A stretch of 64,000 bases of DNA. Origin: Dehalococcoidia bacterium (GTDB lineage Bacteria > Chloroflexota > Dehalococcoidia > Lucifugimonadales > UBA3495). The stretch lies in NCBI GenBank assembly GCA_965199995.1, contig OZ241328.1, positions 2,060,627 to 2,124,626 of the forward strand. Reading direction: 5' to 3'. This document shows positions 50,597 to 51,014 of the stretch, one piece after another. A program made the translations under genes and the position numbers. The notes under the pieces are model-generated. The model was not told the origin of the DNA. It searched no databases and saw only the letters and a list, made by a program, of their open reading frames with translations. Every line of letters starts with the position of its first letter. Positions within the stretch are counted from its first letter, which is position 1.

Positions 50597-50598
50597 CT

Positions 50599-50973
50599 GT
50601 GGGCATCATAATTGAAGAATACACTGTTACCGGAAACCGCGGCACTGACACCATGCGGGTGTTATACGACACCGGGGCAAGCGCCTCTTTCGTCCGCCAA
50701 GACATTGCGGAACCTTTGGGCGACTTTGCAGCCTCGCCCATTTCCATGAAGTTCATGATGGCCGATGGGGAGGAGACGTTTACCGTTGACCGCACCATCA
50801 ATTTGGTTGTAGATGTGGATAATGCCCGGCTGGTGCATAGCTTCTATGTTGCTGAGGAACTCGCCGAGGAATTAGTTATTGGCGCAGACATGATGCAGAA
50901 ATACAGGATCACCCTTAACATGGAGGGCGAGGCTGTTAGCATCGATCCCCGCGCCATATACCTGCGGGCGTAG
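50599..50973 (+). CDS. Small stand-alone retropepsin-like (clan AA) aspartic protease
   Basis: 124 aa. VLYDTGASASFV (catalytic D-T-G-A) and LVIGADMM (hydrophobic-hydrophobic-Gly). GTG start 3 nt after the atpG stop, with GAGGGG upstream. Confidence 0.65.
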   Translation: MGIIIEEYTVTGNRGTDTMRVLYDTGASASFVRQDIAEPLGDFAASPISMKFMMADGEETFTVDRTINLVVDVDNARLVHSFYVAEELAEELVIGADMMQKYRITLNMEGEAVSIDPRAIYLRA

Positions 50974-51014
50974 AGCCTCTGTGATGGCATCCATCCCGGT
51001 TTCAGGAGAATAGT

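Follow-up and report, generated by a model that had tools for sequence, protein, structure and literature searches.

In a window of 64,000 nucleotides from a Dehalococcoidia bacterium (contig OZ241328.1 of assembly GCA_965199995.1, forward-strand positions 2,060,627 to 2,124,626), the atpG and atpD genes, encoding the gamma and beta subunits of the F1 ATP synthase, are separated by a 124-codon open reading frame (ORF) that encodes a single-domain, retropepsin-like protein of clan AA. We put at roughly 0.55 the probability that this gene is transcribed together with the atp genes, is coupled to gamma and specifies a dimeric aspartic protease of the cytosol whose substrates are other than the subunits of the ATP synthase, the gene having been captured once and carried since then as a passenger. 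A preliminary description of the locus had left the role of the protein open, knowing of none described for such a protease in an atp operon; our reading of the literature likewise turned up no account of an atp operon with a protease gene, and the evidence presented here points away from the ATP synthase itself.

Identity of the protein encoded between atpG and atpD

The atpG stop codon (TAG, 50594-50596; coordinates are those of the window) and the start of atpD (51015) bound a 418-bp spacer at 50597-51014, and the lone plus-strand ORF within it (50599-50973) begins with GTG, runs for 124 codons and ends at a TAG, the 124-residue length being as the preliminary description had reported. An exact-sequence look-up found the protein not to be on record, and a comparison with PHROGs gave no match. 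The earlier assignment to the retropepsins was made from two short motifs, and profile searches bear it out: the protein scored 29.1 bits against PF13975 (cut-off 28.2) and 26.1 bits against PF12384 (cut-off 21.2), with matches below the cut-offs to PF13650, PF09668, PF08284 and PF00077, and a sequence search of the PDB returned 'Retroviral-like aspartic protease 1' (E 3.6e-5), the retroviral-protease-like domain of Ddi1 (E 1.9e-3) and the Ty3 protease. The models TIGR02281 (clan_AA_DTGA) and TIGR03698 (clan_AA_DTGF) describe prokaryotic single-domain retropepsin-like proteins of similar size, and weak matches to them span most of the domain; the window protein reached 15.1 bits against the former (cut-off 57.95) and its relatives at most 29.3 bits against the latter (cut-off 57.35), and by these scores the family lies outside both models.

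Both motifs are present as described, the active-site loop VLYDTGASASFV at residues 21-32 (50659-50694, with the Asp24 codon at 50668-50670) and the second retropepsin signature LVIGADMM at residues 92-99 (50872-50895), and the DTGA of the active-site motif V21-L22-Y23-D24-T25-G26-A27 is intact. Across 35 aligned homologues Y23, D24 and T25 are invariant and G26 nearly so, while the second signature has an invariant G95 and near-invariant I94, A96, D97 and M99. The same set shows little or no variation at M1, G2 and I4, at the N-terminus, or from I115 to R123, in the C-terminal stretch IDPRALYLRA; in retropepsins it is the N- and C-terminal ends that form the dimer sheet.

An AlphaFold2 model built from the 35 homologues (predicted local distance difference test score, pLDDT, 78; predicted template modelling score, pTM, 0.72) places a helix at residues 96-101, after V93-I94-G95. 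When this model was compared with the PDB using Foldseek, 130 matches were obtained at E <= 0.001, the best being the retroviral-protease-like domains of Ddi1 and the proteases of xenotropic murine leukaemia virus-related virus (XMRV), equine infectious anaemia virus (EIAV) and human immunodeficiency virus type 1 (HIV-1), with a probability of 1.0, template modelling scores (TM-scores) of 0.57-0.72 when normalised by target length, and 13-22% identity to the solved structures. By analogy with the retropepsin fold, residues ~44-60 (50728-50778, tip MADGEE) are predicted to form the flap hairpin, the model having strands at 44-53 and 60-73 and lower pLDDT between them; in the alignments it is in the flap region that paralogs differ most from one another. 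From the predicted fold and the conserved terminal strands it follows that the protein should be a dimer with one Asp-Thr-Gly loop contributed by each chain, and genomes with tandem paralogs could form heterodimers. The protein is probably catalytically active, and, given that no signal peptide or membrane segment was seen by eye, we take it to be cytosolic. A retroelement protease was considered and ruled out, since the gene stands alone between atpG and atpD, has start and stop codons of its own and is not part of a Gag-Pol-type polyprotein.

Probable coupling to the atp operon

The ORF is on the operon strand immediately after atpG, again as first described, the gap between the atpG stop and the GTG being 2 nt. 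A Shine-Dalgarno-like GAGGGG (50588-50593), 5 nt 5' of the GTG, lies inside the final atpG codons (CTA GAG GGG TAG). A consensus scan detected no terminator-like site on the plus strand in or beside the spacer, in keeping with the earlier remark that no hairpin was noticed in the flanking gaps, and Rfam gave no matches across the entire window; a structured RNA or a terminator as the content of the spacer was ruled out on these grounds. Given the shared strand, the 2-nt gap, the Shine-Dalgarno-like sequence and the lack of a terminator-like site, the natural inference is that the gene shares the transcript of the operon and that its translation is coupled to that of gamma.

Conservation, synteny and selection

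In the protein database we found 98 homologues, 122-126 aa long and with 50-92% identity. A scan of one genome per GTDB species, searched with the protease, gave 36 loci, all in metagenome-assembled genomes (MAGs) labelled Dehalococcoidia and many on contigs or chromosomes of 3-5 Mb; the host clade is one of large-genome soil Dehalococcoidia. (Loci are labelled here L001-L136 and proteins P0xxx, both being our own labels, and "37 loci" refers to the window plus the 36 species.) The protease gene occupies the slot between atpG and atpD in every one of the 36 species, as it does on the contigs L125 and L126, so the insertion, which the preliminary description thought might be either lineage-wide or strain-specific, is lineage-wide. 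Two tandem copies occur in seven of the 36 species, giving 44 copies across the 37 loci, and a distance of 2-8 nt separates the protease start from the atpG stop in 35 of the 37, with a GGAGG-like sequence within the atpG end. Divergent members at this junction include P0100, which matches the family profile with E 2e-39 and is ~48% identical to the window protein, and P0098, which is 50% identical.

None of the 44 copies has an interrupted reading frame. We estimated the ratio of nonsynonymous to synonymous substitution rates (dN/dS) by the pairwise Nei-Gojobori method, using for the protease the 91 pairs with dS of 0.05-1.5, and obtained medians of 0.17 for the protease, 0.10 for atpG and 0.04 for atpD. 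Individual protease pairs ranged from 0.03 to 0.42 and gave no sign of positive selection. The median of 0.17 indicates purifying selection on a functional gene that evolves faster than atpG or atpD.

The preliminary description had also remarked on the weaker GC bias of the ORF, and this holds well beyond the window. Its GC content is 53.3%, against 60.3% for atpG and 61.4% for atpD, and its GC content at third codon positions (GC3) is 0.656, against 0.781 and 0.779; in all 44 copies GC3 is below that of both neighbors, the means being 0.65 for the protease and 0.81 and 0.80 for the flanking genes.

As a separate observation, atpG of L125 (4173-4993) aligns as three frame-shifted pieces and is called as a 175-aa gene, while the adjoining protease gene and atpD are intact; the frameshifts may be long-read indel errors or may mark a damaged gene.

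A related lineage without the protease

Because the loci above were found by searching with the protease, "always at the junction" is not equivalent to "never absent". We therefore searched for outgroups with the gamma subunit of L022, the most divergent protease-bearing species, and the listed matches, at 74% identity or more, included a large group of gamma subunits that are at most 80% identical to any protease-bearing locus. The gamma subunit P0408 (78% identical to L022 atpG) is found on six contigs, L130-L135, where an atpI-B-E-F-H-A-G-D-C operon is followed by a divergent rex-like gene and a DUF503 gene, the flanks being as in the protease-bearing loci. On these contigs the gap between atpG and atpD is 47 nt, with no ORF between.

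The nine atp proteins of the window agree in length with those of L130 to within 5 residues, their N- and C-termini are equivalent, and no propeptide or extension that accompanies the protease was found among them. The beta subunits are 86.9% identical and of the same length, and the Leu/Met-Glu-Gly-stop ending of gamma is present in the protease-free lineage as well. A maturation protease for a neighboring subunit is ruled out by these data, since beta has no extension and the nine proteins match across the lineages. Given that a like operon lacks the gene (L130-L135), and that no subunit feature correlates with its presence, the protease is probably not a component of the ATP synthase, whether as a subunit or as an obligatory factor; a sister lineage without the gene and with no visible change in its ATP synthase argues instead for a long-term passenger, not a part of the machine. 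In a gamma tree (single gene, neighbor-joining, midpoint rooting) the protease-free lineage groups with the protease-bearing L022 and L026, which suggests that it may have arisen by loss.

Turnover and duplication of the protease gene

Several pairs of species, among them L023/L036, L007/L030 and L005/L038, have near-identical atpD and atpG (dS 0.13-0.38) and highly diverged proteases, with dN of 0.27-0.44 and saturated dS. Several paralog groups are resolved in the protease tree, and neither their distribution nor their order within tandem pairs follows the tree of atpG and atpD. Since the paralogs change between close relatives while atpD and atpG barely do, we see no sign of co-evolution with the ATP synthase.

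The inter-copy spacers of L011, L018 and L023 contain a decayed atpD leader and, from atpD itself, the first ~30 nt, likewise decayed. The L011 match extends over 66 of 78 positions, with the ATG changed to ATA, and is followed by a clear atpG 3' end; that end is matched over just 8 nt in L018 and L023. These decayed remnants show that segmental duplication or unequal recombination across the flanks, not transposition, gave rise to the tandem copies, and the same conserved flanks could mediate exchange of alleles between lineages. There were no meaningful flanking repeats, and no transposase, integrase or terminal repeats, around the protease gene; a transposon-like element was ruled out from the lack of such repeats together with the segmental nature of the junctions.

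DTG or DSG is retained in 42 of the 44 copies. The other two have degenerate active sites, the sole copy of L038 having YDADS, against YDTGA, and the first copy of L036 having YDPHA. This divergent, degenerate paralog type (L038 5001-5414, L036 4499-4933) is 137-144 aa long, reads YDADSRDS or YDPHARDS, and has a C-terminal extension; the L038 copy ends 1 nt before atpD.

The wider family

When 1.84 billion representative proteins were searched with a profile, 1230 matches were obtained at E <= 0.001, most of them 123-128 aa long, and a second search gave 1581 proteins, from sources named as Armatimonadota, Desulfotomaculales, KSB1, Elusimicrobiota, Poribacteria, Deltaproteobacteria, Chloroflexi and one archaeon (a MAG). 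Members from different phyla share 50-89% identity, which suggests horizontal transfer.

Some of these relatives are found in ribosomal operons. Two tandem members lie between rplR and rpsE (L18 and S5) in one MAG (L040 5001-5775), and two lie between rplU and rpmA (L21 and L27) in another (L043 and L044, 5001-5796); these tandem members belong to other phyla and are 33-43% identical to P0100 (the first sequence of the query alignment, A2). The L27 encoded downstream of the rplU|rpmA pair has a normal MAHKKGGGS start and no N-terminal extension to cleave. Other distant members are monocistronic, among unrelated genes. The first three look-ups, two of them ribosomal, had pointed to a family generally housed in core operons, and this was downgraded to an occasional association once a census of 80 metagenome loci with 100 neighboring genes proved heterogeneous: the neighbors fall into 79 Pfam families, of which PaREP1 is the commonest at four of 100, and ribosomal neighbors occurred solely at the loci already known. 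The varied contexts of the wider family indicate that the atp association is special to one branch.

Defence-like cassettes and phage relatives

A two-gene cassette of ~1.6 kb, defence-like or toxin-antitoxin-like in character, lies between atpD and atpC in five of the 36 species (L011 6849-8537; L017 6858-8416; L028 6863-8391; L031 6850-8393; L033 6995-8529). All but that of L011 encode a phosphoribosyltransferase (PADLOC PsyrT, 3e-13) and a DprA/SLOG-like protein (PsyrA, 9e-45; ShosA, 5e-34). The L011 cassette encodes an AAA_15/AAA_21 ATPase (NsnB, 5e-47; also AriA and GajA) and a 154-aa partner for which no family match was found. Clearly, the intergenic junctions of this atp operon accept accessory, defence-like genes. 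The window protease itself gave a single, weak match in PADLOC, to the candidate PDC-M08B (E 2.4e-4, 19.1 bits), and the broad-family members P0267 and P0248 gave none.

A phage-encoded family was considered and ruled out, as 2.9 million viral contigs (IMG/VR) contained one relative, a fusion, and none of the atp type. That fusion, on the IMG/VR contig L136 (3992-4918), resembles four others (P0166, P0184, P0200 and P0212), all of 300-410 aa, in joining an N-terminal retropepsin-like domain of the family to a C-terminal Mu-like head-maturation protease/scaffold region (phrog_328). The L136 gene sits between portal/minor-head genes and the major head gene, and its arrangement suggests that fusions of this type may be aspartic-type capsid maturation proteases of tailed phages.

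Proposed origin and role of the atp-linked protease

We propose that the ancestor belonged to a widespread family of stand-alone ~125-aa genes with signs of horizontal transfer, one member of which would have been captured directly 3' of the atpG stop in the ancestor of the soil Dehalococcoidia clade. There it would have exploited the Shine-Dalgarno-like sequence already supplied by the conserved Glu-Gly-stop end of gamma, so that it would be transcribed with the operon and coupled to gamma in translation. Since then the gene would have been inherited in place and duplicated segmentally by way of its atpG and atpD flanks, with paralogs sorted or exchanged among lineages, and it was probably lost at least once. 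As a passenger it would gain the constitutive, strong expression of the atp genes while acting on substrates outside the ATP synthase, of which it would be neither a subunit, nor a maturation protease, nor an assembly factor.

Several considerations weigh against this proposal. Long-term membership of an operon usually signals a functional link, and the atp-type gene, in the 36 species as on L125 and L126, is always exactly at the atpG|atpD junction and seems tightly coupled. Loci gathered by way of a protease search give no loss rate, the comparison involves one protease-free lineage, and loss is read from a midpoint-rooted neighbor-joining tree of a single gene. Equal subunit lengths, moreover, exclude a removable extension but not internal cleavage, degradation of unassembled subunits or non-catalytic binding. 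The protein might instead be a dedicated ATP synthase factor, be it an F1 assembly chaperone, a quality-control protease for unassembled alpha, beta or gamma, or a regulator or inhibitor, acting either as a protease or as a peptide-binding pseudo-protease; coupling to gamma would then give similar amounts of protease. Its fixed position and 2-8 nt gap (35 of 37 loci, with L125 and L126) and the purifying selection on it are what such a factor would show, the atp operon of the clade has other additions of its own (for example a conserved 32-aa micro-ORF, described below), and there is a precedent in RimB, a bacterial retropepsin-like protease whose gene accompanies those of its partners and whose target belongs to a core machine (PMC11957791). 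On the other hand, the sister lineage has an otherwise identical operon without the gene and with equal subunit lengths and termini, paralogs turn over between close relatives whose atpD and atpG are nearly unchanged, L038 makes do with a sole copy that has YDADS instead of YDTGA, and no link to the ATP synthase is seen for homologues elsewhere, so that we regard a dedicated factor as possible but unlikely.

A defence or conflict gene kept in a safe, highly expressed site would be a specific version of the passenger proposal, with the protease cleaving phage proteins, such as the capsid or scaffold proteins on which the retropepsin-like head-maturation proteases of phages normally act, or forming part of an abortive-infection or addiction module. 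The copy number, paralog turnover and persistently low GC3 resemble the dynamics of defence genes, PsyrTA/Shosta- or NsnB/AriA-like cassettes separate atpD from atpC in the operon of five species, a Mu-like head-maturation/scaffold protein encoded in a phage head-gene module carries this domain as a fusion, and some metagenome neighbors look by eye like toxin-antitoxin, restriction-modification or transposase genes, the Pfam census confirming just that PaREP1 is the commonest neighbor (four of 100). The PADLOC match to PDC-M08B (E 2.4e-4, 19 bits) could be added to these, but it is far too weak for membership, and the protein is small and without a sensor or partner. Its dN/dS values (0.03-0.42) carry no sign of positive selection, its position is fixed over deep divergence, unlike typical defence islands, and the 2.9 million viral contigs, with one relative and none of the atp type, lend no help; a defence role thus seems to us improbable. 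More improbable still is a particular form of it, in which the protease cistron is a single-gene anti-phage or conflict module held in the atp operon for assured expression and a hard-to-delete site. The protein would then be a host copy of the Mu-like phage head-maturation protease domain that cleaves or mis-processes head or scaffold proteins, and the tandem, fast-changing paralogs would be variants of differing specificity; were this so, the atp operon with its PsyrTA/Shosta- and NsnB-like cassettes would be a hidden defence island. That the ORF is an autonomous selfish mobile element, or is decaying or spurious and without cellular function, is very hard to credit. Its composition differs from that of its neighbors, and the 50-89% identity of the wider family across distant phyla and an archaeal MAG suggests horizontal transfer, but transposase, integrase and terminal repeats are missing from its flanks, the duplication junctions speak for segmental duplication and not transposition, and the purifying selection evident from 44 intact frames in 44 copies, low dN/dS and conserved catalytic and dimer-interface residues already largely refutes this view.

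Comparison with known proteases and significance

Like the HIV, XMRV and EIAV proteases, the Ddi1 domain and ASPRV1/SASPase, which is the 'Retroviral-like aspartic protease 1' of the PDB search, the window protein is a single domain of ~100-125 residues with two hydrophobic residues before DTGA, a flap hairpin and a hydrophobic-hydrophobic-Gly motif followed by a helix, and, by analogy with clan AA retropepsins, a dimeric active site is to be expected. Unlike the retroviral enzymes it is a stand-alone bacterial gene product that is not excised from Gag-Pol, and unlike Ddi1 it lacks ubiquitin-like and UBA domains.

Among characterised proteins the nearest functional analogue is RimB, one of the few stand-alone bacterial retropepsin-like proteases to have been characterised (PMC11957791). 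RimB, from the rimABK operon of Pseudomonas fluorescens, is a dimer with a single catalytic Asp, and its substrate is the polyglutamate tail of ribosomal protein S6, which RimK makes (PMC11957791). The window protein is like RimB, as described, in being a small stand-alone bacterial retropepsin-like protein encoded in an operon (PMC11957791). It is unlike RimB, whose gene is beside that of RimK, in that no modifying enzyme or identifiable substrate is encoded nearby. A parallel in gene context is Prp, the cysteine protease that in Firmicutes is encoded between rplU and rpmA and removes an N-terminal extension from L27. Here too a small protease gene lies in a core, highly expressed operon, and relatives of the present family fill the very L21|L27 slot in one lineage, but fold and catalytic type differ from those of Prp, and neither the L27 nor the beta subunit considered here has an extension.

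Accessory genes of atp operons include atpI/uncI, the AtpZ-type gene (PF09527) and the inhibitors zeta subunit and AtpTheta. The protease gene resembles these in being a small, non-core cistron, and differs in that the operon already has a 5' PF09527 gene; to our knowledge none of the named accessories has a retropepsin fold or lies between gamma and beta. In a survey of atp loci those of Chloroflexi are unsplit, and an insertion of this kind is not mentioned (PMC4154653). The protein is thus of a known kind, in a gene context that we did not find described.

The analysis defines a large, well-conserved family of ~125-aa proteins, one branch of which is a fixed, probably translationally coupled atp cistron across at least 38 lineages. 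Near-identical operons with zero, one or two copies offer a natural comparison that could reveal a functional tie to the ATP synthase or, more probably, show how accessory genes colonise and persist in essential operons. For annotation, the locus is a warning that an extra ORF in a canonical operon need not encode a new subunit, and the atpD-atpC cassettes suggest that junctions of core operons may harbour defence-like genes.

Other features of the atp operon

The whole atp operon spans 45194-52862 on the plus strand, as do all its genes, which were assigned from the ORFs and from Pfam labels of the L001 and L003 orthologues: an atpI-like gene (45194-45445, matching PF09527), atpB (45442-46515), a micro-ORF (46590-46688), atpE (46736-47008), atpF (47027-47530), atpH (47537-48076), atpA (48175-49686), atpG (49733-50596; 287 aa, with PF00231 found on orthologues), the protease gene, atpD (51015-52412; 465 aa, without an N-terminal extension) and atpC (52419-52862). 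Between the protease gene and atpD lies a 41-nt spacer (50974-51014, plus strand) that holds the atpD translation-initiation region, with AGGAG at 51004-51008; the motif atcc(c)ggtttcaggagaa ahead of the atpD ATG is kept in most of the 37 loci. A sigma-70-like promoter match (50915-50942, plus strand; TTAACA, 16 nt, TAGCAT, with an upstream TG) falls within the 3' end of the protease gene, 73 nt 5' of atpD; in the region 44400-53700, 11 such matches were observed against 3.0 expected from shuffles.

The micro-ORF between atpB and atpE encodes in its 32 codons a single hydrophobic helix with no Pfam match. It is found at the identical position in L001, L003 and L125 with 81-91% identity; tblastn gave no match in L126, and no gene is called in the corresponding gap of L130. 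Loci that bear the micro-ORF have a c subunit of 90 aa, the alternative length being 84-85 aa. Subunit a, encoded by atpB, is 357 aa long in the window, with an N-terminal extension of ~100 residues that includes an extra hydrophobic helix and with a His/Glu-rich C-terminus (HEHEGHEEHH); since the protease-free lineage also has a long subunit a (356 aa), the long form is not linked to the protease. The operon's end faces a convergent gene for a Rex-like redox-sensing repressor (52933-53598, minus strand; PF06971/PF02629 in orthologues), followed by a DUF503 gene (53761-54054, plus strand), an arrangement common to the protease-bearing and protease-free lineages.

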